A stretch of 64,000 nt of DNA, taken from positions 85,746,001 through 85,810,000 of the forward strand of contig OX597822.1 in assembly GCA_951406725.2 (NCBI GenBank), given 5' to 3'. Below are positions 329 through 63,756 of this stretch, piece by piece. The position numbers and the translations under genes are program-made. The notes beneath the pieces are model-generated. The model was given only the letters and a program-made list of their open reading frames with translations, made no database searches and was not told the DNA's origin. Source of the stretch: Octopus vulgaris. Taxonomy: Eukaryota. How positions within the stretch are numbered: position 1 is the stretch's first letter; each line of letters opens with the position of its first letter.

Positions 329-2024
329 CTGTAAAGAACAATACAAAAACAATACAATCGCTGAATTAGTTAAAGAGTTGCAGTAAAGGGTCAACTAGAG
401 TTAAAATAGAAGGGAGTTGTTGAGAGAGCCATTGATAGAGAATTTATTCTGATAGTGGCAGAAATGATAGAAATAGACCCTCTTCTCTCATTGTTCAAGG
501 TCAATAGAAGATTGGCAACTGAGCAATTTAATCTAATGAAACACTACATATTGACATATATGCACAAGAACAGCACCCAGTAGACTCTGTAAAGTGGATA
601 GCATTAAGAAGGGCATCCAGCCATAGACACTGTACCAAAGATGATATTGGGGGGGCTCATCATAGTCTGGTGGCTTGACAGGTCCTGTCATCTGCCCAAC
701 CCATATCCAGTGGCTTGGCAGTTCCTATCAAACTGTCCAACCCATGCCTAGTGGCTTGACAGTTCCTCTCAAACTGCCCAACCCATTCCAGCATGGAAAA
801 TGGACCCTCAATTATAATAAGGTACAAACTTATAGAAACACACACACTGTCATTTTGGTAATTTGTAATTATACCAAAAGTAATGAAAATACAGTCAGGA
901 AAAGCAAAACAAAGACAAGTAGCCAAGACACTAACTTTCTTCAGCTCGGTCTTCTTATATTTAAATAAATATTGCAAGATATGATCACAACTCTAAGCAG
1001 TAGCAGAAGCACTGCAGAACATGATGTCACACTCCACCTCAACCCACTGTAACATGTGTTGTCACACCTAGGCAGAGTACAGCTATCAGCTGAATCTATA
1101 ATAAAGATAGTGCCGCCCACCAGGCTCTCGAAGGAAGGTGAGGCGTGTTTTTTCCTTACAGTGGCAGTGTTGGAAGAGTGTGTTTGGAAGACTAGACTGC
1201 AAGGACTTGTGACAGGAACCTTCATCCCTGGCCCTGGATCGCTCACCTTTTTCAGATATCATGTGAAGAGCAAGATAGGGCTGGAGAGGGGACAACTGTC
1301 ACAAAGTGTGTTTGACAAAAGATGGAAGGCTGTGGTAAGAAAGGTGGGTGCAAGTGACCCTGCTTAATCTTCATAGAAAAGGAAAAAGGTGTAGTCGCTG
1401 GGCTCTTCAGTCCAGCAAGTTTTACCCCCAAAAAGTCAAAATATATATCAATCCTAAATTTTTTAAATTCAACTATCATTCAAACTCATTATAACAATAA
1501 TTGTTTGTATTGTCCTGTTTTGTCCCCTCTGTTTATGATAACAATTATTTAAAAAAACAATTCAACCCACTGTGGAATGATTTTCCACAAGAACAATTGA
1601 AATTAGCACTGAAAATGGTTGGTTATGTTTGTATCTGTAACGTGACCATCACACCCTAACAGCCTCCTATACACCAGTAGAAACAGGGGCCAGTGTCAGA
1701 GTGTTTATACTCTGTTGTAGCCCCAACCTACAACAAAAAGTCAACTGATAGCAGAGATGAAATGATAGAGCGTCCATTAAAGCTACAGGCACAAGGCCTG
1801 CAATTTGGGAGCAAGTGGCTAACCAGTTACACTGACCTCAGTCCTTGACGGATATTTTATCAACCCCGAAAGGATGAAAGGTAAAGTTGATCTCGATGGA
1901 TTTTTAAACTCAGAACATAAAGTCAGAAGAACTGCCAGAAAGTATTCCATCCAACATGCGAACCATTCTGCCAGCTCAGCACTTTTGTAGTGAAAAGCAG
2001 ACTGTAAAACAAAAGATTCCTTAC

Positions 2025-2294
2025 CAGCTCACTTTCATCAGAAATCTTATATCCTTTCTGCTCCATCCCAGTCTTGGAGCCTTTGTTACCAATGGCAGTG
2101 TAGGAAATGATGAGGTTGTCTTTAACTGCATTCTGTAGCTGCTTGTGAGTTTCGGAGGGAGGAACTTTGTGTTCTCGCTGCATGTAGCGCGTGATGCGCT
2201 CCAAGTTGGGGATTTGCTTCTGTTGTTTGATATATGCAATGGCATTGAGTAGCTGTCGAGCTTGAACTACTGTTGCTTGTCTCCTCCACACCAT
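2025..2294 (-). CDS. ZMYND11: ZMYND11/BS69 first coding exon (N-terminal SAMD1-like winged-helix domain)
   Basis: MVWRRQATVVQARQLLNAIAYIKQQKQIPNLERITRYM...AVKDNLI...GNKGSKTGMEQKGY closely matches the ZMYND11 N-terminus as I recall it (RRQAD...IRNQKQIANIDRITKYM...AVKDGLI...GCKGSKAGIEQEGY). Acceptor tttttcag ends at 2341, so the exon is 2025-2340. There is an in-frame TGA upstream of the ATG. Phase-0 donor CTG|GTAAGG at 2024. Confidence 0.93.
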
Positions 2295-2357
2295 AGTCGT
2301 CCAACCGGGAGCTCTCTGGAAATCGAGTCACAAGCAATTTCTGAAAAATACGGAAAC

Positions 2358-2388
<31 letters not shown>

Positions 2389-2593
2389 GCTTCAAATTTT
2401 GCCACAAGGGCAGCCATTTTTTGGGGAGGAGATAAGTTGATCAATTGGTACTTGTTTTCATTGATCTCGAAAGGATGAAAGGCAAAGTCAACTTCAGAAC
2501 TCAGAATTTGAACTCAGAACATAGCGATAAGTGAAATACTGTTAAGCATTTTGTCCATCGTGCTAACGCTAACGATTCTGCCAGCTCACCACC

Positions 2594-2637
<44 letters not shown>

Positions 2638-4849
2638 CATAATGATGATGATAATAATGTTCTCTGATTTAGGCAGAAGGCCAGTAATTTAGAGGGGAGA
2701 GGGGAGGGTGTTAGTCAATAGCACTGACCAAAAGCGATGATGATGATGACAACTATTGAAAATAAGACATTTTTAGTTTTAAAAGGTGATATCTTTATAA
2801 TTGAAACAAGTTTTTAACAATCATGTTGAGAAATTCATTTATGTGTGTTTATCGAAGACAAAGAGAAAAGAGGAGAAAGAGAGGGAGAGAGGCAAGCAGA
2901 AAGAGAGAATAGAGATTCATATTTTTGTCTTCCAATAATTGTAAGAAGCTGCTGCTTTTAAAAGATCTACCTACCTACCTATCTAATCACCTCTCTGCTA
3001 ACCAACCTACCAACCTAGCCATCTATTTATTGATCTCTAAATGATGAAAGACAAAGTTCACTGATAGGGTTTGAACCTAAAGCACAGGGAGCCAAAACAA
3101 ATACTGATTTTCTACCAATTTCACTGCCTTCAATGTTTTTCTATCCAAACTTAATTCACGGCACTCCTCCTTCCCCATCACCCACACTGACAAAGTGTGA
3201 GAATTTCCCTTTCCTTTGAAATCCAAAATTAAGAGACGCCCTAACATGTTTTAATACAACAGCATTATATAACAGTCCCTTTCCCACCATAAATAGTAAA
3301 TATATAACAAACACCTCCCACCACCACTTCTGTATAGACTGCCACTGCACCATCTCCTACCATTGCTATGGTTACATTACCAGTTCTTAAGCCCTAACCC
3401 TCACCTTGTCCCCTCCACCCACTCAAATTGTCCTAGAATCACAGAGACTACATTGAAAAACAAAAGTGGAAAGATCACAACAACATCACTGGCACCCCAA
3501 CTCCCAAAACATCATCATCATCATCATCATCACAACAACCGTCAAAGATGTCTCTATGTGATCACTTGACGTACTAGAAATAGCAGTTAACACTTCCCAT
3601 AAATCACACCCTACTGTTATACAGACAAGATGGTCGGTTTTGGAATGCTTTTGATTGTAGATCTGCTTGGTGAACAATGGCCTGGGATTAAACAACTTCC
3701 AAAGAATTTATTCAGCATTCCAGTGGAGGAGGTGGCTGTCCCCAAAATGTCAGGGAGCCAGAATAAACAAATAGCTTCAAGTATGAGTCTTGGTTAGAGG
3801 GTAGAGGAGAAAGTTGAATGAGAGTAGAAGTTATGCAGTGAGAGGAGGGGGGTACTTGGAATGGTTAAAATAGGGTTGCAGAGATTGTCACAGTAGGAGT
3901 AATAGTAGGAGGGAAAGAGAGTAAAATCAAGATTTTTCTCAGGGCATTGACACCCTTAATAAAATGATGTTATTTCATTTCAGCAATTTGCTAATGTCTA
4001 TACAATCAACTGCAATGACTGCAGAGGGAGGGAGGGGGGGGGTTAGTTGATTACATTGACCCCAGTGCTTCACTGGTTCTTTATTTTACCAGAGCTGCAA
4101 GGATGAAAGGCAAAGTCAACCTCGATGGAATTTGAACTCGAAACACACAGACAGACGAAATGCAGTTAAGCAGTTTGCCCAATGTGCAAACAATTCAGCC
4201 AGCTCACCCACCTAAGCCACTGACAGCAGAACAATGGGGAGGGAACGAAAAGGTTTCAAGTTAGAACAGAGATGACCAAACACATTTAATCTGGGCAAAA
4301 GTCAGGAAAAAATCATCCTACAATTTCTTCATGTTGGAATTGTTGACTTTGGAGTGAATTTTATGTAGTTCTTCAAGAAGGATATTTAGGAATTGTGACA
4401 TGATGACAAGGGTTCTTAAGGTAACTAAAAGATCAATAACAACACAGATAGACACAGGCATTATTACTGTGTGGTAAGAAGTTTGCTTTCCAACTACATG
4501 GTTGCTGGTTCAGTCCCACTGCATGACACCTTCACCAAGTGTCTTCTTCTATAGCCCCAGGCTGACCAAAGACTTGTCAGTGGACCTGGTAGACAGAAAC
4601 ATATGTTCAACCTCTCTTTATTATTATCTCCTTTTCATTCAACCTCTTATTTTTCCAATCATTCACCATGTTGGACCACTGAACTCAACACATTTGTCTT
4701 CCTCTCTCTATTTATTTCCTCTTGTTTTTTTTCTGTTGAACAGCATAGGCTCAAAATGTAAAAAAACTTTTCCATTTTTAACTGAACATCAAGCTAATAT
4801 ACATGTTTGTTCCTACACCTGTCTTCGTCTTTGATTTTCTATAAATTTG

Positions 4850-4892
<43 letters not shown>

Positions 4893-6181
4893 CATGTAAA
4901 AAGCACCATCTGAATGTGGCCAATGCCAGTGCCCCATAAAAAGCATCCACTACATTCTCGGAGTGGTTGATGTTAGGAAGGGCATCCAGCTATAGAAACA
5001 TTGCCAGATCAGACTGGAGACTGGTGCAGCCTACTGGCTTACCACTCCTCAGTCAAACCATCCAACCCATGCCAGCATAGAAAACAAATGTTAAACAATG
5101 ATGATGATGGTATATATCGGTGTGTGAGTGTATGTCTTTTTGTGTCTGTCTCCCACCACTGCTTGACAAATGGTGTTGGTGTGTTTACATCCCCATTACT
5201 TAGCGGTTCAGCAACAGAGAACAGTAAGATAAGTACCAAGCTTAAAATAAAAAGAAGAACAAGGGTCAGTTTGGCTTGCCTAAAATTCTTGAACGTGGTG
5301 CCCCAGCATGGCCACAGTCTAATGACTGAAAAAAAGTAAATGACAAAAAGATATACATGTTCCTATGGATTCTGAAACCTAAAGGCATGACTGCTACAAG
5401 AGTAAGAATGCTGAGAAAAAATATGAGAACAGAATTAGGGAAAGGGAAACTACTGCCCCCCCCCTATTTTCCTTTTCATGCTAGCATAAGGAAGTTAGTT
5501 GTTGCATAATTAGATATTAAAATCTTCTTTTGCAGATATACAAGTCCTGCCTAGAGATAACGCTTCATCCATGACACTGGAGAGAGAGATAACGAGTCTT
5601 GCACAATACAGTAATTCTTTACAGGCTTGAATTCTTGTCCAGGTAATTAGTGGTTCAGAATATTAACCTTAAGCTAATTAATTATTTTAAGTAGGTTACC
5701 ATGTTATCAAGGATTGAATGATTTGCAAAATTTAGGCAAATTTTGATAAAATGCATAAATAAACATGGAAAAAAGAAATCAGGTTCCTGTGACTAGCCAA
5801 TCACTGCAAAATTGAATTTCATGGTTATTTCAGTAATGTTAAAGGTCTACCAGAAAATGGAATTGGTATTTCTGCAAGTCACACTACCACACTAACTCAA
5901 TAAACACGATTTATTCCAACACAAAATGACATTCTTCTACAAATGATAGATTGATATATAAAACTGTTCTTCAAAACTGAGGGTAATGGGATTTTGAGAT
6001 GATATATCTGATTCCTACAGGAGGAGGAGGAGGAGGTTAAAAAGGAACATAAACAGAAAGCCAAAAGTTATATTAATGCTATGTTCCTTTTAGATAATTC
6101 TTGTAGCTGTCACTTATCTATTTTCTATCTTAGAGAAGTTTCAATGAGGAGTCAGCCTGTGTCAAGATGACGACTTACCTT

Positions 6182-6235
<54 letters not shown>

Positions 6236-6307
6236 GATAAGTTCACTGTCAGAGAAAATCCAAAGGTACCATTACTTTGAACTTATTTAATAAACAGTGA
6301 CTCAATG

Positions 6308-6366
<59 letters not shown>

Positions 6367-7389
6367 AAATAGGTGGGATTTTGAAAATTTGGGCCTTCAG
6401 ATGTTGTTTAAGCAAATATTTTTACAGCTGGGCATTCTTCTTCTTGAGGCTTCATGACTCCAAATACAAAATACAAATGCCAACAGAAGCCGAGTCAACC
6501 ATCTTGCTTAGATATTTGGTCGTAACATACAAACCATTATCCTTGCTAGTCAACTTCAATGGCAACTTGGCGATTTTTGCAACAGCAATTCATGAGCCAA
6601 AGAAGGGAGTCCCTACTGCTTACTCAATTTGCTAATAATAGCAGCCAAATCTCTCTCAAATCACATTATTGTACAACATTCTTTTGCTGTATAGTATTGT
6701 ATGATAATGTATTATTCTATAGAGCTTTACGATAACAGCTTGTACCAACCCCACAAAACTGTCAGAATCTGGAACAGGGGTAAAATAACAAACCCCATTT
6801 GAAGAATCATCACACAGACCCATCCTCCACCTCTGCACACCCACAACAATTCCAGAAAGGCTAATCTTTGTCATCACTGTCCCCTCCCACCACCAGCACA
6901 TCTAAAATGCTATACAAATCCTTGGACAGATTCACACCAGTATACTCAACCATAACTAATGAACCAAACAAAGCCGATACAGGATTGCTTCAACAACAAA
7001 AGCCTTTACACACACACACAGAGTTTTAACTTCATTAGATTGTTAAGTTAATGGTCCATTCTCCTCAATTAGGCTGTAATGTTAATTAACTAAAATATTT
7101 TACCTCACCACACACTATATTAGCACCAACCTTTAATGTTGGCTCAGGTTGTTATGGTCATCTGAAATGGACAAGAACAACGCTTTCAAAACTAAAAATT
7201 TCCTAAGCACAGAACTACATGCTGTTACCCACATTTTTTTCAATCGATATGCCCCACTCCATTATTCGCCAAATCCATTTTACATCTACCCCCAGCCTTA
7301 CACCAATCACCAAGAAACCTGGCACCAAAACAACAGACTTAAAACAATCTTAAAACTAAATCATCTCTCTTCATAGCAACATAAAACAC

Positions 7390-7750
7390 CTGTCACCCCA
7401 CTGACCACAACATCAGCTTATCAGAGTCATACCACATCAGTCACCCCGTTGACCATAATATCTGACACCTCACTGACCACAACATCCAACACCTCACTGA
7501 CCACAACATAAGACACCCCAACGTCACTCACCCTGCTGACCACAATGTCAGTCATTCTCCTGACTACAAAGTCAGTCAACCTGCTGACCACAACATCAAT
7601 CACCCTCCCTCTCCGAGCAGCATAACGCCAGTCGCCACCCCCAAGACCACAGTATCACTCACCACACTGACCACAGTATCACTCACCACACTGACCACAA
7701 CATCAGTCACACCACTGACCACAACATCAGTTACCCCACTGACCACAATG
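7390..7750. repeat. degenerate minisatellite, core ctgaccacaacatcagtcac
   Basis: About a dozen recurrences of (c)tgaccaca at ~23-40 bp spacing. Confidence 0.8.
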
Positions 7751-10700
7751 GCAAATATTGCACTCAGACTCTCTCTACCTTATCCACCTCCATCACCACC
7801 ACACTCTACATAGATGGACTGGGCAGTTGAGAGAATAATACCCAGGCAGTTACAATACTTCCCCCCTCCTCTGTCACATACAATTTGTCACTGCATGTCA
7901 AGAAAGTGTAACAGTCATCAGTTACACACACACACACACACACACGCACGCACACACACACAATACAACTGGAAAATTGGATCTGTTGTGACTAGTTTCT
8001 CAACGGAGTCTCTCTACACCCTCGGTCTACTTCATCCCACTTCACGTGGAGCTACACAACAACACTGGTATCCAACTCTACACAACTACATTAAACAACA
8101 ACATTATTTGATAAAAACCCTATGCAACTCTTATAATTGACCACTTTTAAACACTTCTGGTATGTACAGAGTTCATGTTCGAACATGTTTTGCTTTGTTG
8201 GTATAGAAGAGTTCATGGAAAGTATAGATAAATAAAACAAGTTTGAAATCAAAAACCAGACTTCTCAAGTACCTACATAAAAATTGGCTGACTCACCAAC
8301 ACCATCATTGCATCTGTTGCAATAAATGTGTGCGTTTGTGTGTGTACACATGTAGATAGAGCTTTGCACTTGTGTATGGTTCTGGGCACTAGATTCAATA
8401 TGTGAGCACTCAAGCAGTGGAACATTAAAAGCACCATCTGAGTGTGATCGTTGCCAGGGCCACTAATTGGCTCCTATGCCAATGGCACATAAAAAGCACC
8501 ATTCGAGCGTGATTGTTGCTAGCGTCGCCTTACTGGCATGTGAAAAACGACATTCAAGTGTGGTCGTTGCCAGTGCCACCGGACTAGTTCCCATACAGGT
8601 AGCACATAAAAAACACCTTTTGAACCTGGTCGTTGCCAGTACTGCCTGACTGGCCCTCATGCCAGTGGAACGTAAAATCACTTACACTCTGTCGTAAATG
8701 CACACTGACACTACCCAGCCAGCAGAATATGCTGGCTTCACTTTGATATAAATCAACATAAGATATGCCTGTGCTGCCTGACTGGCTCGTAAAAAGCACC
8801 CACTACACTCTCAGAGTGGTTGGCATTAGTAAGGGCATCCAACTGTAGAAGCACTGGTAGATCAGATTGGAGCCAGGTGCAACCACTGGCTTTCCAGACC
8901 TCAGTCAAACCGCTCAACCCATGCCAGCATGGAAAACAGATGTTAAACGATGGTGGTGATGATGATGATGATGATGATGATCTTAAGTGGCCGAAGAACC
9001 AATAGGTCACAGGACATATTTCCTGTAACTGTTTATGATGCAAAACAACCAACTCGATAACATCCATGTCTCAAGCCCATCGCTTTGCACTGTAAAAATG
9101 AAATAACCTTTCCGATGTGGGAATGAATAGTTCAGCCGCTGGTTCAAATCTCCGACAAATACTTCTTTAGCCAATTTGCTTCATTCGATGTTACCGCATC
9201 ACACCCAGCTGTTTAAACTCATTAATTGTCAAACACAGATCATTACAGGTTTCCTCAGGTGTTACTGTTTACTTTGTCAGTTTACCTAACCATGGTGTCA
9301 AAGTGTTATGTGATCTGTGTGAAACAGGGGGGTGAGAAGGGAGATGAGGGTAGATATGCCCCCTTCCTATACAATCTAGTGACTGCATATATAGTGGTGG
9401 AACTTGAGAACTAGACCATGTTATTATAGTTTAACCCCAAGTCAGCCTTGATCAAGCAGACCCAGGATCAAAGGTATTTCCAGTTAAGACCACCCAGTCT
9501 TTTTGTATATCAGGAACCAATATTGTCTGTGTTCTTCCTCTCTTTTAAAACAGTAGGGTGAGAATTCTTTTAGCCATAGCTTAGCACTGATTCAATAGAT
9601 TAAAGGCATTCCTGATATTTTTGTATATCAGGAACCATCTAGTTCTTCCTTTTTGTGAGGGAGATTTGGCTCTATATCTAGCAAGCTGACTGACCACATA
9701 GAGTTGGTTTGTAGTTTGACACAACAAGCTGTAAACAAAGCAATTTGACACATGATAGAGTCTGATGTAAAATAGCAGACTGGTGTCTATAGTGTAAGAT
9801 ATTGTACCAGTAATACGGTAGGGTGTGTTGATAATGTTGACTAGCATGGCAAAGTACACGCACACACAACTAAACAAATAGATTCACACATATCATCATC
9901 ATCACCATCATTTAACATATATTTTTTCCATGCTGGCATGAGCTGGATGGTTTGACAGTAGATGGCCAGCTTCTAATTGTCTATTTTGGCATGGTTTCTA
10001 CAGCCGGATCATCATCATCATCATCAACATTTAACGTCCGTTTTCCATGGTGGCATGTGTTGGATGATTTGACTGAGGTCTGGAAAGCCAGCAGCTGCAC
10101 CAGGCTCCAATCTGATCTGGAGGCCTTTCCTAACGCCAACTACTCCGAGAGTATAGTGGGTGCTTTTTACATGCCGCCAGCACAGGAGCCAGCCAGAGGG
10201 CCCTGGCATCGATCACGTTTGGATGGTGGTTTTTACGTGCCACCGGCATGGGAGCCAGTCAGGGGGCACTGGCATTAACCATGTTCGGATGCCCTTCCAA
10301 TCACTTTACAGAGTGTACTGGATGCTTTTTACATGGCACCAGCACTATATATATATAGTGGAATGAGTAGCCCATTATATCTCTGTGCATCCGCAGCTAG
10401 ACATTTTGCTCAATGGTTGGCTCAACTTTTGTTTTTGTTTTTTATATTCTTCTGTGTTTATATAGAAAGTATTTTTGTTAAATTTGTAATAAACTGCAAC
10501 GAAACAACTTACAACGAATGTCGCATGTTAGGTTTGTAGAGTTGAGTGTGACTCAGGGTGGGCAACGGGTGGAGGTGCTAAGTTGCTGAACATTTCAACA
10601 GGAATATTTTTCATCTGATAACTATTAGACATCCAAGTGTCATTTGGAAAACATTTACCACAGTGACACTAATTGGTTGACTAATTGGATGATACAGCTA

Positions 10701-16089: not shown

Positions 16090-17175
16090 AGACACATAAA
16101 CACAAATATATACATACAGATGCACACGTGTGTGTGTGTGTTACTTGATGATATCATCACTGTAGATATTCTATCTTTGCTGTTATACAATTGAATTTTC
16201 TCCTAATAAATATCAACACCAGCCATTCACTTGCTGGAATCGGTTCTGTTCCATTGTTATGTAGTTTTCAGTGCAAGAACCACTAGTTTCCATACCTGTT
16301 TCTAGTTCTTCATAACACGGTTCTCTTTTGGTGTCTCACCTAAGAAAATAGATTCACCATTGCCAAAATCCTTTGCTGTTTTAACTCAATTGTTTTGTTT
16401 CATAAGCAACATGTGTCGTCTGTTGTTGCCGACACAAGCTACACTATGCATGTGTGTGTGTGTGTGTGTATGGGTGTTTATGTATCTCTTTGTATGTGTG
16501 TGTAAGCATCAGTAATTGAAATACTGTTGCCGTCCTTTCTTCAAAGCCTGTTGAAGACTGACATTCTGAAATATGATTGTCCAAGAATGACATTGTTTAA
16601 GCAGTGAACTTGTTCCCCACCCACAAGATATTTTTTTGTGTGTGTCATCCTTTTTACAAGTCACTTTCTAATTTATAGAATTCTCTTGTGATAGACAAGT
16701 CTCTTGTAACTCATCTCTTTGAGGTAGAGGGAAGGACGGATGGAGTCGGAGGAAGGCACACACACACACACACACGAATGTAACAATTTAACATTTTACT
16801 ATCCAATAATTTGTGACATGAAGGCCGCAAGCTGTCACACAGGACAAAATGCTTGTTGGCATTTCATTTATCTTTATGTTCTGAGTTCAAATTCTGCTGA
16901 GGTTGACTTTGCCTTTCATCCTTTCGGGGTTGATAAAATAAGTTCCAGTCAAGCCCTGGGATCAATGTAAACAACTTTCCCCCTCCCCCAAAATGTCTGG
17001 CCTTGTGCCAAAATATGAAACCAATAGTTTGTGACATTCTTCTTGATTTGATGGACACACTGGAGATTAAGCCAAACATTACTGGCCACACACCGCACGG
17101 AAAGTTTAAGGAAAAAAACTTTGTATTTACATTATTTACATTTGATGGATATTTGTCCTCATTTTGTTTGTTGTT

Positions 17176-17220
17176 TACACAATGTTTCGGCTGATATACC
17201 CTCCAGCATCATCAGGTGTA
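17176..17220 (-). ncRNA. minimal type I hammerhead ribozyme motif
   Basis: Minus strand: tacac CTGATGA t gctg-gagggtatat-cagc c GAAA catt gtgta, with a perfect 5-bp stem I. Confidence 0.68.
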
Positions 17221-17255
17221 TTGGGAATGAGAACCCAGGTTTGAAATTTCCCCAA

Positions 17256-17301
17256 GACACCTGATGAAGGCTAGATGGTACATGAGCCGAAATGTTGTGT
17301 T
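17256..17301 (+). ncRNA. minimal type I hammerhead ribozyme motif
   Basis: gacac CTGATGA a ggct-agatggtacatg-agcc GAAA tgtt gtgtt. Predicted cleavage after 17296. Confidence 0.7.
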
Positions 17302-18213
17302 AGCAACAAACAAGATGAGGATAAATATCCGTCAAATGTAAATAATGTACATAATTCCTCTTAAATATAGAACTGTTTTAACTTTGTATAAAGTTAAAAA
17401 CTTGGAGAAACATGAAAAAAATCACAGTTTACTATGTTTTATTAATCATAATTATGTGTAAGAAAGTTATTATAACACGTTTTTTAAGATGTTTAACCAT
17501 TAGTATGAAGTTGGTAAAGCCTTGAATTGTATTTGAAAAATAAACTGTAGAGGATATCTAGATATTCCTTGCAGGGCATCATTTGAGAATCACCAGTCCA
17601 GAGAAAATATTAGAAGAGTGTGCATTCCTGCCATAGGTCATGTTAGGATTGGAGAAGACCGTGTCTATGTCTAGACAATGCATTAGAAGATAGGATGTTT
17701 CTGTTACTAGGACGTGTTGGGGCTAAATAAAATTATCAAGATTAATTCTGTGGTGATAAGGCAACATCTGAAATTCTTGCATCTGAGAACTTAAAACAGT
17801 GACAATATTGCAGTTAGAAAAGCTAATTGGTATGTCAAAGGGCTAGAGAAAACCCCATAACTAATTATTGTAAAGGGCCACAACTAAGCATGTTAGAGGA
17901 CCCTATCACATTCTCATCCTCATCATTTAACATCCACTTTTCATGCTGACCATGTGTTGGATGATTTGACAGGAGCTGGCAAGCTGCACTAGGCTCTAAT
18001 TGCTGGATGCCCTTCTTAACGCCAACCACTTTACACAGTGTACTGGGTGCTTTTTATGTGACACCAGCACAGGTGCTTTTTTACATAAGTATTGAATGTA
18101 ATAAAGATCCTATGTCAGAAGACCCCACAACTAAGACAATTAGTATATGTAGCAAAGGCCTTAATTAACAATGTTATAACCAGAGAAGACCCAAATGGCT
18201 AAATATCCTTTCA

Positions 18214-19579: not shown

Positions 19580-19780
19580 TAGTGAATTCAAACAAAGAAG
19601 AACAAGCAAGAAAAACCAATAACACGAGGACGTGGTACAAGTACTGTATTATCAAGCCCTCAAGAAAGGAAGGATTTAACATTTCAAGCCAAGCTATTCT
19701 TCAGAAATAGAAAAAAATCCAAAGGAAGGAAAGACAGAGAAAGAAAATCACCCATGAAAACACGGTTATATTTTGAAATG
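19580..19780 (-). mobile_element. probable second Penelope-type terminal repeat with a degenerate hammerhead (19674-19708)
   Basis: Minus strand: attt CTGAAGA atagcttggctt GAAA tgtt aaat. The element sits next to a (TA)n tract. Confidence 0.4.
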
Positions 19781-25606: not shown

Positions 25607-25637
25607 GCCCTAAAAATTTCACTCCATAATTGCCCAT

Positions 25638-25710
25638 GGGTATATGGCATAGTGGTTAAGAGCACAAGCTATTAACCCCAAGATTCTGAGTTCGATTCCA
25701 GGCAGTGACC
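25638..25710 (+). other. tRNA-derived segment (Pol III A/B boxes) inside the Penelope terminal repeat
   Basis: A box TGGCATAGTGG and B box GAGTTCGATTCC. The acceptor stem does not pair, so this is not a real tRNA. Confidence 0.7.
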
Positions 25711-25769
25711 TGAATAATAATATCAAAAAATACCTTAGGAATGAGAACTCAAGTTCGAAATTTCCCCAA

Positions 25770-25813
25770 GACACCTGATGAAGGCTGGAGGGTATATCAG
25801 CCGAAATGTTGTG
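25770..25813 (+). ncRNA. minimal type I hammerhead ribozyme motif
   Basis: gacac CTGATGA a ggctg-gagggtatat-cagcc GAAA tgtt gtg. Core boxes are intact, stem II is 5 bp, and stem I is shortened by a downstream deletion. Confidence 0.72.
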
Positions 25814-26974
25814 ACAAATATCCGTCAAGTGTAAATAATGTAAATAATCCCTGATTTGATACTCGGTGAGAACTATCCAGAGACACATGCATGGACATTG
25901 CTGATTTATAGTCAACAACCTTCCATAATGTTCTATCAAACTTCCATGGGTTGGGTCAACCCAACCCATGGAAGTGGTAGACACTAGTTATAAAACCCAC
26001 AGGTTTTATAACTGCAAAGTTTACGACTCAGTTACACTCCTACATACATGTATGTATATAAAATGTAGGCAGGTACTTATAATATGTATGTAGGTGTGGG
26101 TGCAGACACATACACATACAGATTAGTATAGTAGCATTAAATATCACATGATCTCAAATGTATATGTAAACATTCGTACGCACACACAGAAGACACAGAG
26201 TCTATTAAAGCAAGCCCAAAATAGAGGCAAGTGAGCCGATAAAGTGAAGTGCAACTCCTTTTTCAGCAGCCATGACCCACAGAACCAACAACATTTCAGT
26301 CCACAGCTAATCTCAACAAAAACATTTATTACATTAGATTTTTGCAAGATATCCACCCTTACATAGAGTCTCATTAACTCATCTACCCCCCACCCTATCC
26401 ATATTATTTCCACCCTCTTACACTTGTATGTCTGAAAAAAGAAAACAGATTTGTCTGTGACACTTTAAGTGTTTTGAAACTGTGCAGTTCTTTGGCCTCT
26501 ATTTTGGCATTTCCTTCATATTTATACATGTGTGTGTGTGTGTGTGTGTATTGTGCTTATATCAATGCATCTATGTCTTGTGTGCTTATGTATGCATATA
26601 TGTATGAGTATTCGTAGGTATTTCCTTGGCAACAGGGAGCCAGACTCTGGCTCCAGTGTAGTAATAAAGACTCCCTTGTTGGAATTCAGACAGTGGTAAG
26701 TGTGTGTGTGTGTTTTTAAGAGACAGACAGACAGACAGAGGGAGAGAGAGAGAAAGAGAGAAGGATGGGTGTGTGTAAGAGAGAACACTTCTAAGTAAAC
26801 AGTTCTGTGTAGCAAAGGGTTTCTTGGTAAACATGGTTTCCATAGTGGGTTGCCTCTGTTTTTTTAATTTTTGTCAGTAGATTTAGGAAAGGTATGAATA
26901 CCACATTATTATATTGTCACCCCATTTTGGAAAGAAACAATATTTTATCATTATTATGGAAGCAATGACAAGCG

Positions 26975-29347: not shown

Positions 29348-29646
29348 AAAATTACTATTCAGCAACAGTAGTTTGGGGTAAACATTATTTGCCAACATAA
29401 CATGGCAGTCCTGGTTTGGGAGGAATGAAGGGAAATAACCTGGAAATCGTGATATTGTGATAAATCGTGATACACAGATATTGTTTTCAGCAGAGTGGGG
29501 GGTGCTAGATTCCCTTGTTCGAAAATATAAGGACACAGATCGTGTGGTATAGCCAGCTGGAGACGATGTCTCCTGGGGCTAAATTACAGCAACATGCGTC
29601 CTAAACCAAGACTGCCATGTTATGTTGGCAAATAATCTTTACTCCA
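29348..29646. mobile_element. second copy of the fold-back family, inserted into a family A SINE
   Basis: About 48-bp inverted arms (ttatttgccaacataacatggcagtc / gactgccatgttatgttggcaaataa). Flanking direct repeat caccctaa(g/c)actg at 29335-29347 and 29645-29657. Confidence 0.8.
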
Positions 29647-31814
29647 CCCTAACACTGGTTAGCAAGCATTGGGGTGGGATGACAGACACAAAGACACACA
29701 CACATGACAGGCTTCTTTGGGCGGCCCCAGGCTATAGTAAAAGACTCCTGACCAAGGTGCCACACAGTGGGCCTGAACCCAGAACCACATGACTGGGAAG
29801 CAAACTTCTTAGCACACGCCACGCCTGCACCAGTGAACTTGAGTCACTTCTCCAGGTATTTTGTTGCTTATTATTCAGTCCTGTCTTGTCTTGTTCTGTT
29901 GCCCTCGTTAAGGTTGAAGGGCAGAAGAACAAGACAAGACAAGACTACCTTATCTTGCTGTTTAAATAACCAGAGATCTGTGATAGTGGCAGAGAAAGAG
30001 AAAGAGAGAGAGGACTTGGCTGGTGGAACAGAGATTTAAATGGAAATAGTGGTGGTATCCTGTGATGATAACAGTGGTATTGGCCATGGTGGTGGTGGCA
30101 GCTGCAGCAGCAATGATGTCACAATGGTGAGATTTAGTAGCTTCTATGTACAACACTTGAGTTTGGAACTGAAGGACAGCAACAGACACTCTCCCGCGCA
30201 CCCGCCCAACCACACATACAATAACAACCACAACAACAAAAACAGACAAATGTTAATTTTTGCTTGTATTGTCAGAAACGGCATGATATTATTGATTTGC
30301 AGACCTGTTGGAACCTGAGCATTGCCAGCACAATAATAATGATAACAATAATAATAATAATAATAATAATGGAAAAAAGAAGACAAAGATATAAAAACAA
30401 GTCAATATTAAAATCAATTCCATTAGCAAGTAACCATTTGTTTCTTTATTTGTCTTGCTATGTGTGTGTGTGTGCGTGCATACATTGCTGCCAGATAGAG
30501 CAGGTGACAAATTAACTTTTATCTCCATCAACAGATTAATTCTGGTGACAGTCAAATTAGGTTCTTCATGAAGCTTATTGCAAATCAATTCTTTGTATTA
30601 GCAGCAAAACGTTCAACACACATACTGCGGTGGTGGTGGTGGTGGCGGTTGTCAGGGACAGGATTCTTCAGTTATATGTATTTGCAATTCTGCATTTAAA
30701 CAGATGCTACCAAAGAAAGGCCAATGTAAGAATGACCCACTTCTCCAAATTATCTTGGTCAGTGACTGAGCATGAAATTAGAAATAATTAAGTGACTCGT
30801 GCAGACAATTCCAAGAAATCGAGTCACATGGCCTGAGGGAATTTAATCACATGAACGGACATCATTATTTTAGTTTATCTTCACACAGCTATCATCAGAA
30901 TTTAGAATGTACAGAGAAGGGGGGGAGAGGAAGATACAAGGAAATTGTTGATGCATTGCTACAGTTAGACGAATAATATTTATATAATATTTATATTTGT
31001 AGGTGCAATGTGTGGCTGTATGGTAAGAAGTTTGCCTCCTAGCCATGTGGTTCCAGTTTCAGTCCCACTGCATGGCACCTTGGGTAAGTGTCTTCTACTG
31101 TATGGCCTCAGGCCAACCAAAGCCTTCTGAGTGGATTCGGTAGACAGAAACTGAAAGATACTCATCACGCACGTGCGTGCGTATGTGTTTGACCCCCCCT
31201 CCTGCTTCACAACTGGTGTTGGTGTGTTTACATTCCCATAACTTAGTGGTTCAGCATTAGAGACTGATAGAACAAGTAACCAGTTTTTAAAAAAATAAAT
31301 AAATTCTGGGGTCAATTCATTTCTCTAAGATTCATCAAGGTGTGCTCTAGCATGACTACAATCTAATGACTGAAACAAGATAAGAAAAAAAAAAGGAAGG
31401 TTTTAAATATTTCTGTTAAGATTAGTTAAATCTTTGAAATATTGATTTGGTCAAAGAAATCAATGACTGTTTGAGATAGACATGGCCATACACAGAGTCA
31501 AATATATAACCATCTTAAGATTTACATTTGAAAACAGGTCGTGTCCATTTAGAAAGTGGATGGTAATAATAATCTCATTGAATTTGCTGCAGAGGAATTT
31601 GAAGGAATTGATACGATTTGCTAATCCTTAATTAAATCAAAGCTTTTGATCTTATTTCTGTATTATAAAGTGAGAGGACAGCAAAATAGGTGTAACAGCC
31701 CCACTTTGCCACCCAGTCCTCTGACAGATTGTGCTTAGCATCGTGCCAGATGTCTATTTGAGCAGGTCTGCAACACAACTCTCCTCCTCTTGGCACTCTG
31801 TTGGTTATGATGAT

Positions 31815-41583: not shown

Positions 41584-41927
41584 TATTCAGCAACAGTAGT
41601 TTGAAGAAAAGAATGTTTGCCAACATAACATGGCAGTCCTGGCTTAGGATGAAGATTGCTGTAATTTAGCCCCAAGACACATCGTCTCCAGCTGGCTATA
41701 TGACACGATCTGTGTTCTTATATTTTCGAACAAGGGAATCTAGCACCCCCACTCAGTTCAAAACAATATCTGTGTACCAATATTGTTAGATTCCCTTGTT
41801 CAAAAATATAAGGACACAGATCATGTCGTACAGCCAGCTGGAGACAATGTCTCCTGGGGCTAAATTACAGCAACATTCATCCTAAACCAGGACTGTCATG
41901 TTATGTTGGCAAATAATCTTTACTCCA
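41584..41927. mobile_element. fold-back element with ~140-bp inverted arms
   Basis: 41601-41743 is the approximate reverse complement of 41785-41927. Homologous to 29356-29646. Confidence 0.85.
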
Positions 41928-60125: not shown

Positions 60126-60867
60126 TAAAACAAACAACTCTATTCTGGAAATATATTCTTGGTAAGAAGAACTTGACATAACCAAGTTAACCAAATAAGC
60201 TGGAGACATTCCATTTGTTTTGTTATGCAACAAAACACAACATAAAAGTAAAGCGTTTTGAAAAACCTTTCTATTAAAGACAGAAGGCCTGAAATTTGGG
60301 GCTGAGGCTGCAAGTTCATTGCACTGACCCCAGGCTCTCAACTGGTACTTATTTCAGTGACTCTGAAAGGGTGACAAGCAAAGTCAACCTTGGTGGCATT
60401 TTGAACTCAGAACATAAAGCCAGAAGAAATGCCAGGAAGCATTTTGTCCAGCGACCGATTCTGCTAACTCATTGCAGTGGTTCATTCCATATACTAAAAG
60501 CACAAGTCCAAAAGAAAATTATCTGGTGTTGGCTCTGGATATCGGGCTGAGTTCAGTCCTCTCAAGAGCAATGCAATAGCACATTAAATAAGATACAAAC
60601 CACTGCTCAACAATAAACCAATAATCTTCATACTGAGGAATGTTGGTTTGCATCTCATTTCATTATCTCCAACCAAATCAAATAGAAATAATAACAGATT
60701 AAAATGGACATTTCCAGGAATATCTATTGACTTATCCATGAAATGTAAAGACGAGTAGGTATAAATACTGCAAATGGACACCCTACCAATGAGAGAGAGA
60801 GTTCAAAGACTAATCTTAATAACAACAACAACCCAGACATTTAATTACGGAGCACTTTATGATAACT

Positions 60868-61158
60868 TATTTACCTTATTTACATTTGATGGATATTTGA
60901 CCTCATCTTGTTTGCTGTTAACACGTTTCGGCCAATATACCCTCCAGCCTTCATCTGGTGTCTTGGGGAAATTTCAAACCAGGGTTCTCATTCCTAAGGT
61001 ATTTTTCAATGTTATAAATTTTTATTATTCAGGTCAATTCGTGGAATCGAAGTCGGAATCTCAGGGTTAGTAGCCCATGCTCTTAACCACTACGCCATAT
61101 GCCCGTAAATAATGTAAATAATGTACATAATTCCTCATCTCTTAAATATAGAACTGTA
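60868..61158. mobile_element. Penelope-type insertion: inverted tRNA-head plus hammerhead cassette (60868-61104, minus) joined to the element 3' end (61105-61158, plus)
   Basis: Flanked by the 12-bp direct repeat tttatgataact (60856-60867 and 61159-61170). Ends in cttaaatatagaactgt like the 17.3 kb copy. tRNA-like head at 61032-61104. Confidence 0.8.
60920..60962 (-). ncRNA. degenerate hammerhead motif (core mutated to CAGAUGA)
   Basis: gacac CAGATGA aggctg...tggcc GAAA cgtgtt. It has a core substitution and a 3-nt deletion, so it is probably inactive. Confidence 0.55.
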
Positions 61159-62227
61159 TTTATGATAACTATTTGTAATCACTGGTTTTTGAGGTTTATA
61201 AAAAAGTTTTGGAGTCGATAAATTAAGTACCAGTCGTGTACTGGGGTTGATCTAATCGACTGGCCCTCTCTCCAAAAATTTCGGGCCTTGTGCCTAGAGC
61301 AGAAAAGATTATTATTATTATTATTACTATTATTATTATTATTATTATTATCATCATTACTCCGAGATTAACTTTGCTTTCATCCTTTTGGGGTTGATAA
61401 AATAAGTACCAGCCATGTACTGGGGTTAGTGTAATGAACAAGCCCAACCCACCAAAAACTTAAGGCTTCATGCCTCGAGTGGAAAGGATTGTTATTACCG
61501 TTACTAACAAGATTTTAAAATGTCAAAATTTTGGCAAGAGAGAGAGAGAGAGAGAGATGCATTAGAGTCTGGGAATTGGGGGTTTATTTCTGATGTTTAG
61601 CTCCAGTTTTATGGAGTTAATCAGGCAGGAAATAAATCTTGCTCAGGTGTCAGAACTTGCTAAATGGTCTGGAATGCTTAATATCCTGAAAAGAGAGCTG
61701 TGTAAGACAGGATCTGGTTAACTCCATAAGACTAAGGAAACCTTTCCTAAGCTTTATAGAGTTATTAAGATCCTGTAGAAACATACACACATAAGCACAA
61801 GCATATACACACACTCACTGACACATCTCTATATACCCTGCTCAACTACACAACCAGTTCGTTAAAGTATATACTTACAGCAGCACTATACTCAATAGGT
61901 GAGCAATGAGCCAATGAGTGGCACAACTTCCTAGAAACAGTAACCAACTCTTCCTCAAATCAAACCCTACTGCTTCAAATGTACATATTAGATAATGTAC
62001 ACTTAGATAAACTTTGCTTTGAAAAAAATCCAGTCATATCTGGAATGCGTTTTTCCTTTTTGTTTTTTTAATTATAGATTTGCTCCTCTGGGACAAGTGA
62101 CCTGGAACTAAATAGCAACAACAGGTTGGTAATGTAGGACAAGGTGTAGTCTAGGTAGGGTGGAGGCTGAGAGGTTTCTAGATACTGAAAAAAGACACAG
62201 ACATACACTTACATAAGTAAACTTACA

Positions 62228-62570
62228 TCACATAGCATATACATATACACACACACATTATATACATACACATACATTACATACATATATATACATATAT
62301 GCACATACACACACATTATATACATATATATACACATATACACATACACACACATTATATACATATATATACACATATACACATACACACACATTATATA
62401 CATATATATACACATACACACACATTATATACGTATATATACACACACATTATATACATATATACACATACACACACATTATATACATATATACACATAC
62501 ACACACATATACATATATACACATATATACACATACACACACATTATATATATATATATATATATATATA
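62228..62570. repeat. (CA/TA)-derived minisatellite with ~30-38-bp period
   Basis: Recurrent unit acacacattatatacatatatatacacatatacacat. Confidence 0.9.
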
Positions 62571-63756
62571 TGAACATCAATGGAATTTGTATCTTTGTGG
62601 TACCAGTGCCTGTGGCACACAAGAAATCCATCCGAACGTGGCCGTAGTCAGTACCGCATCGACTGGCCATCGTGCTGTGGGCACATAACAAACACCATCC
62701 GATCGTGGCCGTTCGCCAGCCTCATCTAGCACCTGTGTCGGTGGCACATAAAAACACCATCCGAAGACCCGGCAAGACTAGTCAGGCCATATCCCATGGC
62801 CCCTACCTGGGACGTAGTCAGTCCACCTGTGCATACCTTCCTCCTTGTGATACTTGTGAAGGCCTGTTGAGGCAAGTGAAAATCAAAATGAAATCAAAAC
62901 AAATCAAATCAAATCAAATCAAATCAAAATAGATGAACATTAATGGAATTGTATCTTTGTGGTACCAGTGCCGGTGGCACACAAGAAAACCATCCGAACG
63001 TGGCCGTAGCCAGTACCGCACCGACTGGCCTCCGTGCTGTGGGCACATAACAAACACCATCCGATCGTGGCCGTTCGCCAGCCTCATCTGGCACCTGTGT
63101 CGGTGGCACATAAAAACACCATCCGAAGACCCGGCAAGACTAGTCAGGCCATAACCTGTGGCCCCTACCTGGGACGTAGTCAGTCCACCTGTGCATACCT
63201 TCCTTCTTGTGACACTTGTGAAGACCTGTTAAGGCAAGTGAAAACCAAAACAAATCAACATAGATGAACATCAATGGAATTTGTATCTTTGTGGTACCAG
63301 TGCCGGTGGCACGTGGCACACAAGAAAACCATCCGAACGTGGCCGTAGCCAGTACCGCATCAACTGGCCTCCGTGCTGTGGGCACGTAACAAACACCATC
63401 CGATCGTGGCCGTTTGCCAGCCTCATCTGGCACCTGTGTCGGTGGCACATAAAAACACCATCCGAGCATGGCCGTCTGCCAGCCTCGTCTGGCACCTGTG
63501 TCGGTGGCACATAAAAAACACCATCCGAGTGTGGCCGTTTGCCAGCCTCGTCTGGCACCTGTGTCGGTGGCACATAAAATCACCCACTATACTCTCGGAG
63601 TGGTTGGCGTTAGGAAGGGCATCCAGCTGTAGAAACACTGCCAGATCTGACTGGACTGGTGCAGCTTTCGGGCTCCCCAGACCCCAGTTGAACCGTCCAA
63701 CCCATGCTAGCATGGAAAGCGGACGTTAAATGATGATGATGATGATGATGATGATG

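Follow-up and report, generated by a model that had tools for sequence, protein, structure and literature searches.

The palindrome at positions 17117-17389 of this 64-kb stretch of Octopus vulgaris DNA (hereafter the window) carries a hammerhead ribozyme motif on each strand. This raises the question of whether such a fold-back is kept to control its ribozymes, or is what an ordinary insertion leaves behind. We confirmed the inverted arms proposed by an earlier sequence-only reading at 17124-17225 and 17251-17353, with a hammerhead in each, on opposite strands. The arms pair over a long block (17124-17207 with 17270-17353, 84 nt, 86% complementary) and a short block (17209-17225 with 17251-17267, 17 nt, 94% complementary). 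The whole palindrome folds into a rod, with z-scores of -20.8 on the plus and -16.2 on the minus strand and none of 200 shuffles as good, and the isolated arms fold like shuffled sequence (z of -0.9 and -0.4). A 10-bp direct repeat at 17117-17126 and 17380-17389 encloses the element. When 5000 pairs of 35-nt windows were drawn at random, 38 shared an exact match of at least 10 nt, and a second insertion of the same family in the window (copy 3) carries a 12-bp duplication, so that the interpretation of the direct repeat as a target-site duplication was upheld. A 24-nt hairpin at 17376-17399 overlaps the right duplication. A-to-I editing occurs in cephalopods, and the 100-bp duplex formed by 17124-17353, if transcribed, would be a likely substrate for it.

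The two focal arms are unequal. The left arm (17124-17225, minus strand) is a 5'-truncated family copy with a short, tail-less 3' end, which overlaps the last 3 nt of the left duplication. The right arm (17221-17375, plus strand), also 5'-truncated, begins about 30 nt further upstream, at 17221, and extends into a PLE-type (Penelope-type) 3' tail that ends at 17375. This tail (17347-17375) has no counterpart in the left arm, and is 22-29 nt long depending on the register of a 9-nt repeat; that of copy 3 is 34 nt long. The 3' ends of both arms face outward and abut the target-site duplication, and the arms are joined head-to-head over a few shared letters (17221-17225). We rejected a MITE or other DNA transposon as the source, since the arms are unequal and the inverted arm is 102 nt long, 54 nt long or absent across the three family loci of the window. 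Other fold-backs were also seen in the window, namely an element of about 330 bp that is 81% self-complementary (41602-41927), with a related copy at 29356-29646, and shorter palindromes at 29877-29946 and 25940-25975.

From copies 2 and 3, the family monomer is about 280 nt long and comprises a 73-nt head bearing Pol III A and B boxes, an (AAT)n linker, the hammerhead and the tail. Copy 2 (25638-25848, plus strand) contains head, linker and body, has lost the 3' side of stem I to a 21-nt deletion, and terminates in a short 3' end. It has a short palindrome at its 5' edge and neither a clear duplication (5 nt) nor an inverted arm. The main arm of copy 3 (60868-61104, minus strand) contains the full head, the linker, a hammerhead in which U4 is changed and 3 nt are deleted, and a short 3' end. 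Adjacent to it lies an inverted arm (61105-61158, plus strand) that consists of the last 54 nt of the family, including the tail, without a hammerhead. The 12-bp duplication of copy 3 (60856-60867 and 61159-61170) encloses the head, the body and the inverted tail piece. The left flank of copy 3 had no cover in run X14, which is not evidence either way. Both duplication-flanked insertions, two of the three loci in the window, thus have outward-facing arms, one short-ended and one tailed. The three short ends differ in position by no more than about 2 nt and the two long ends fall on the same position; the tail, present on one end only, is absent from the three other arms in the window. Copies 2 and 3 start at the same base with the 73-nt head, which the focal element lacks, and their homology ends exactly at the first base of this head; the 5' boundary of the family is defined from these two copies, and none of the loose ends listed for the public runs covers the sequence 5' of the head. 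The short palindrome bordering the head on its 5' side (25632-25643) recurs in a joint of run X1 and in the database entry P0019.

The head resembles a tRNA. In copy 2 (25638-25710, plus strand) the A box lies at 25645 and the B box 34 nt further along; the head of copy 3 spans 73 nt (61104-61032, minus strand). Scanning the window with the usual A-box and B-box patterns returned the copy 2 head and four other sites, compared with three matches in 20 shuffled windows. Copy 3 has a mutated B box, which the majority letter of the public runs repairs. Compared by eye with a tRNA, the head is collinear and retains five of six acceptor pairs; Rfam and ARAGORN did not recognise it as a tRNA and no parent tRNA was found, the relaxed ARAGORN search being uninformative, with 30-289 calls that represent noise. 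Head and body are joined at the same place in both window heads, and no free head occurs in the 64-kb window. Among the 32 records listed, two span head and body by at least 31 letters, and derive from other loci, as they differ at 16 and 11 letters; several of the joints among those listed also connect the body to the head. Contigs break at the (AAT)n linker, which limits these linkage counts. At least three other abundant short repeat families are present in the window, some with A/B-box heads (15738, 21695, 32093, 44477).

We then examined the hammerheads themselves. A scan of both strands of the 64 kb for core and stems gave four matches: the two focal motifs, the family copy at 25775 and one weak, unrelated match at 19704. 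Both focal motifs are minimal type I hammerheads with a 5-bp stem I. In the right one (17256-17301, plus strand; predicted cut after 17296) the core letters are intact, pair 5 of stem II is an A x G mismatch and stem III shows CpG decay. The left one (17176-17220, minus strand) is damaged; its extra A is deleted, G10.1 is changed and its stem III tetramer is not self-complementary. The core letters, the extra base after A9 and the G10.1-C11.1 pair are all present in the right arm, in copy 2 and in the family majority, and the left arm fails at G10.1 and the extra base. Rfam gave no hammerhead match at the focal site (E<=10) or across the window (E<=1). Since folding energy does not set an isolated arm apart from shuffled sequence either, we base the hammerhead call on its core letters and the geometry of its stems, and on these the minimal PLE-type assignment was sustained.

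The outer stem I pair was said to differ between the arms and still to pair, and it does (G-U in the right arm, U-A in the left). The letters reported after GAAA in the four copies are likewise present, with the correction that CGTG in the fourth copy is the product of a 3-nt deletion. The self-complementary ACGU tetramer is kept in neither focal arm: it wobbles in the right and mismatches in the left. Its proposed ancestral status with CpG decay was borne out, as the CG is kept in most of the depth of three DNA-type public runs, with transitions at its two letters of 4-15% and 8-26%. A palindromic 15.1-16.1 tetramer, with which a dimeric helix III is possible, is present in the family majority. 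The decayed tetramers of the two arms (17182-17185 and 17292-17295) are exact complements of each other, which is likely a coincidence of CpG decay on one strand.

The family is abundant in public runs. Contigs matching copy 3 at 80% likeness numbered 29,228, 26,200 and 22,915 in three DNA-type runs with three organism labels; a further 2,896 in X20, a run guessed to be RNA, are uninformative on expression. Summed depth relative to the unique flank was about 96,000-fold (X1) and 105,000-fold (X4) over the tail, about 77,000-fold (X1) and 88,000-fold (X4) over the 5' side of the hammerhead, and about 21,000- to 25,000-fold over the head in these runs; as summed depth is not copy number, we read these values only as abundance of the order of 10^4-10^5 with frequent 5' truncation. 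The 3' end is sharp, with loose ends at 61158-61160 in 713, 827 and 613 records of the three runs, and the sequence beyond the tail is unrelated among loci (agreement of about 0.4). Two opposite-strand joints were seen among 15 listed, and one rare head-to-tail joint (run X1, depth 248) suggests a dimer. Exact-pattern scans of metagenome, genome and viral collections returned no loci.

The majority letters give an intact core with U4 restored, a 6-bp stem II and the ACGU tetramer, and the stems hardly vary among the family's contigs in the public runs. Setting CpG changes aside, the 40 variant rows listed place family variation within the hammerhead only at N7 (14-19% for one letter, up to 12% for another) and in loop II. 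These positions are also third codon positions of a reading frame, so that constraint on RNA and inherited constraint on protein are inseparable here.

This frame starts with an ATG 34 nt upstream of the hammerhead core and continues across both hammerhead and tail. A remnant of it survives in the focal right arm (17227-17375, plus strand), with stops at 17242, due to CpG decay, and 17272. The CpG-decay stop of the focal arm and copy 3 is absent from 71-76% of the depth, and the frame is open in copy 2, in the majority letters and in the database proteins P0005 and P0006, which begin at the ATG of the element. A 49-codon open stretch arose in 1.8% of shuffles. The frame is likely the start of a PLE ORF, and we infer that it encodes the PLE N-terminus. 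The named proteins that contain family sequence belong to Octopus sinensis and O. bimaculoides, and one O. bimaculoides gene model (P0019) joins the head to the hammerhead frame. In P0005 (O. sinensis LOC115224785 isoform X2) and P0019 (O. bimaculoides dystrobrevin beta isoform X1) the element forms the first coding exon, and both gene models exit it at the same residue; going by these models, it may supply alternative 5' exons.

A profile search gave 214 matches, and most of the 150 listed belong to a second, related hammerhead-bearing family (P0007-P0155) with a different 5' part, a collinear frame and the same two 3' ends (72 tailed, 61 not). Partial tandems also occur in it, with 26 matches flagged by a loose pattern as having repeated units. 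The covariation seen in the helices amounts to a single pair, U-A versus C-G between the two families, as deduced from amino acids (modal WQ in 4 of 8; RR in 40 of 125). Reverse transcriptase (RT) or GIY-YIG motifs were absent from the 150 listed of the 214 matches, as were RT or GIY-YIG Pfam domains from the 59 matches scanned. Word-index searches for an autonomous partner gave one, no and two matches, and these, like the profile matches listed, were short spurious or exonised frames or chance matches (P0049, P0079), with no partner enzyme among them.

A gene on the minus strand of the window was recognised from a first coding exon at 2025-2340 on the minus strand (SAMD1_WH, E = 1.5e-12), with an ATG at 2294, an upstream in-frame stop and a splice acceptor at 2341, and from a frame at 152-394 on the same strand with a PHD-finger exon (E = 0.0013, below the Pfam cut-off). 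From its domain order we take this gene to be ZMYND11-like. The splice acceptor and the upstream in-frame stop at the winged-helix exon imply a non-coding first exon further upstream. A Pfam scan of 86 selected frames (of 1334) detected no other gene, with one weak match below the cut-off. CpG is depleted up to 62 kb in the window, and neither another gene nor a CpG-rich promoter was found at 2.4-62 kb. A rise in CpG at 62-64 kb was considered as a promoter and rejected, being a young repeat cluster instead; this is a CpG-rich tandem cluster of a SINE-like repeat (62566-63746) with units 89-92% alike. The palindrome is possibly inside an intron of the ZMYND11-like gene.

Such a location underlies the earlier proposal, which we read as the fold-back being retained because it silences the ribozyme and thereby shields the ZMYND11 pre-mRNA. 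Part of that proposal agrees with our models. In a transcript of the whole element from either strand, the antisense arm is predicted to sequester the hammerhead, with an unpaired probability of at most 0.05 for the core and a calculated cost of 41 (plus) or 45 (minus) kcal/mol for adopting the hammerhead fold; this arm would also be transcribed before the hammerhead. The implied upstream exon, with no rival gene or CpG-rich promoter at 2.4-62 kb, and a double change in the left arm that keeps the outer stem I pair, also fit it. Against this, the other double change, found in the right arm, disrupts its pair, and the gene-sense (minus) motif is the one that lacks both G10.1 and the stem III palindrome. 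Conservation of the hammerheads above their flanks was not seen: there were 10 changes in 92 hammerhead positions versus 5 in 114 outside (per arm, 5 in 46 hammerhead columns versus 1 and 4 in 57 outside columns), counted against the majority of four copies, with some columns decided by two of four. The geometry is normal for PLEs, and copy 3, on the same strand, has it without a second hammerhead and without a covering arm; whether a second hammerhead is included would follow from the extent of the inverted cDNA, which in copy 3 stops short of it. Furthermore, in the part of the report available to us, a lone minimal hammerhead did not cleave in vitro (PMC4209133). As both ribozymes are damaged and have changed at least as much as the remainder of the arms, a protective role is unsupported, and we give it hardly any credence. 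Sequestration is predicted, but little remains to be sequestered and there is no sign of selection. Taken together, these results indicate that the focal palindrome is genuine, and is a PLE-type insertion whose two hammerheads are decaying. It is an ordinary one, because the anatomy of PLE insertions is published and opposite-strand hammerhead pairs are already in print.

What kind of family produced this insertion is a separate matter, on which three other explanations bear. The copies could be solo pLTRs of an autonomous PLE, with a chance tRNA-like stretch and no separate non-autonomous family. PLE copies are mostly 5'-truncated, as the accessible text of PMC8557442 states, the summed depth over hammerhead and tail exceeds that over the head about fourfold, and the 5' boundary of the head is known from two window copies. 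On the other hand, the homology of these copies halts precisely where the tRNA-like head begins, at that point copy 2, the run X1 joint and P0019 all have the short 5' palindrome, and no attached RT or endonuclease (EN) sequence was found among the matches listed; we consider this explanation unlikely. If instead head and body were separate elements, (AAT)n-ended tRNA SINEs would be preferred and repeatedly hit targets of PLE ends. An (AAT)n run does lie between head and body, a PLE protein prefers AT-rich ATT cut sites (PMC11167929), and some PLEs show a bias towards microsatellites (PMC8557442, in the sections available). Nevertheless, both window copies, and likewise the bridging contigs of other loci, agree in head, orientation and junction, the 64 kb contain no free head, and the single duplication of copy 3 spans both parts, which makes separate elements very improbable. 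We attach even less weight to a non-LTR retrozyme, in which tandem units would be processed by the hammerhead into circular RNA and the palindrome would be a stray product. The unit size falls within the 170-400 nt given in the portion of PMC7229834 available, run X1 has one head-to-tail joint, and retrozymes have been proposed to derive from PLEs (bioRxiv 10.64898/2026.07.22.740005, available in part). All three window loci are, however, dispersed and none is a tandem with two or more same-strand hammerheads, unrelated sequence rather than a next unit lies beyond the tail, the hammerhead is minimal, and copies neither start nor end at the cut site.

We therefore favour, with good though incomplete confidence, a single decayed insertion of a high-copy, tRNA-headed, hammerhead-tailed octopus repeat, likely made by Penelope-type enzymes. 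That the repeat is a true Pol III SINE with a PLE partner, present at the order of 10^5 copies across Octopus and with the core intact in its source genes, is a more finely balanced proposition, towards which we lean slightly. Published work makes such a route plausible. A PLE protein acting at AT-rich targets cleaves both strands and extends them, starting reverse transcription from two internal sites that delimit the tail (PMC11167929). Of the RNA, only the region of the ORF start is needed, the hammerhead overlaps the start codon, and uncleaved RNA is the main substrate (PMC11167929). Inverted truncated arms, tails, duplications and 5' palindromes of PLEs are described in the accessible portions of PMC3846280 and PMC8557442.

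What we observed is the anatomy with its duplications, the two separate 3' ends, the linkage of head and body, the abundance and the intact majority core. The route beyond these would start with Pol III transcribing source copies from the tRNA-like head. A PLE reverse transcriptase/GIY-YIG protein would bind the captured ORF-start segment in trans and cut both strands about 10-12 bp apart. Reverse transcription would then begin at the short site on one side and at the tail site on the other, giving one cDNA per cut end, and the two 5'-truncated cDNAs would join head-to-head at microhomology. The template was likely uncleaved RNA, since the head, which lies upstream of the cut site, is retained in copies. 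The hammerhead would probably be kept as part of the recognition signal for the PLE protein, and cutting would require dimer formation or the help of a protein. At the focal locus both motifs are decaying, and the hairpin would be a by-product. The rule of one short and one long end, seen in both inverted insertions, is offered as a prediction, because the in vitro study saw no strand difference in start site (PMC11167929).

If the family is a PLE-partnered SINE, its hammerhead core has been held intact although cutting would sever the promoter, and its insertions form the largest natural record of two-ended PLE priming. The origin of the inverted arms and tails of PLEs would become testable on tens of thousands of natural insertions, with one short and one tailed end predicted for each inverted insertion, as would the purpose of the PLE hammerhead, whose cleavage is dispensable in vitro. 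The single focal palindrome is unimportant alone, and the family is the part worth following. PLEs make up 6.83% of the O. vulgaris genome, with 30 recently active Penelope families, according to the accessible text of PMC13282606, and the part of its supplement available to us does not mention hammerhead or ribozyme. The 2026 O. vulgaris library probably holds the family under some label.

The octopus repeat shares insertion marks with EN+ PLEs (Penelope/Poseidon, Neptune and Nematis), including a 5'-truncated inverted arm, an 8-12-bp duplication, a 5' palindrome, a 30-40-bp tail at one end only, a hammerhead over the ORF start and an AT-rich target. Unlike them, its unit contains neither RT nor GIY-YIG, has a frame of about 50 codons, and carries a tRNA-like head and (AAT)n upstream. 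Its ribozyme matches the minimal hammerheads of metazoan PLEs, as far as the available part of PMC4209133 defines them, in being type I with a 5-bp helix I and no loop 3, and in the extra nucleotide between 9 and 10.1, the G10.1-C11.1 pair and the palindromic 15.2-16.2. That report also places opposite-strand pairs 100-700 bp apart. In contrast to the hammerheads described there, the octopus one lies in a tRNA-headed unit, its helix II has 6 bp rather than the 7-8 of S. mansoni, and its family numbers of the order of 10^4-10^5 copies versus a reported 2,000-9,000 per genome.

Among short repeats, the SINE-like Sm-alpha and Sj-alpha of schistosomes, as presented in the text available of PMC6765202, are similar in being non-coding, with a Pol III-type promoter followed by a type I hammerhead. 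They are, however, often tandem, with a canonical hammerhead that cleaves in vitro, whereas the octopus family is dispersed, has a minimal hammerhead and bears the PLE tail and inversion marks. Animal non-LTR retrozymes are likewise short and non-coding, with a type I hammerhead and a proposed PLE dependence (PMC7229834; bioRxiv 10.64898/2026.07.22.740005). They are defined by tandem units with at least two hammerheads and by circular RNAs, and the accessible parts of these sources, of which the preprint argues PLE dependence for tandem retrozymes and samples no mollusc, describe no tRNA head.

With tRNA-derived SINEs the family shares a head of tRNA length with A and B boxes, a high copy number and dispersal; it differs from them in its 3' end, which is PLE-like rather than LINE-like, with a fixed non-repetitive tail and no A-rich or simple-repeat terminus. 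Octopus tRNA-derived SINEs named OK, OR1 and OR2 were reportedly described by Ohshima and Okada in 1994. A tRNA-headed unit with a PLE end is a new combination of known kinds, and may coincide with OK, OR1 or OR2 or with a Repbase or Dfam entry; no description of a PLE-mobilised tRNA SINE was found in the open full-text literature. SINEs have been described as depending on non-LTR retrotransposons. Parasites of LTR elements that use a Pol III promoter were described in 2024 (PMC10886601, as far as its text is available), and a tRNA-headed parasite of Penelope, if that is what the octopus family is, would fill a third slot beside those of LINEs and LTR elements.
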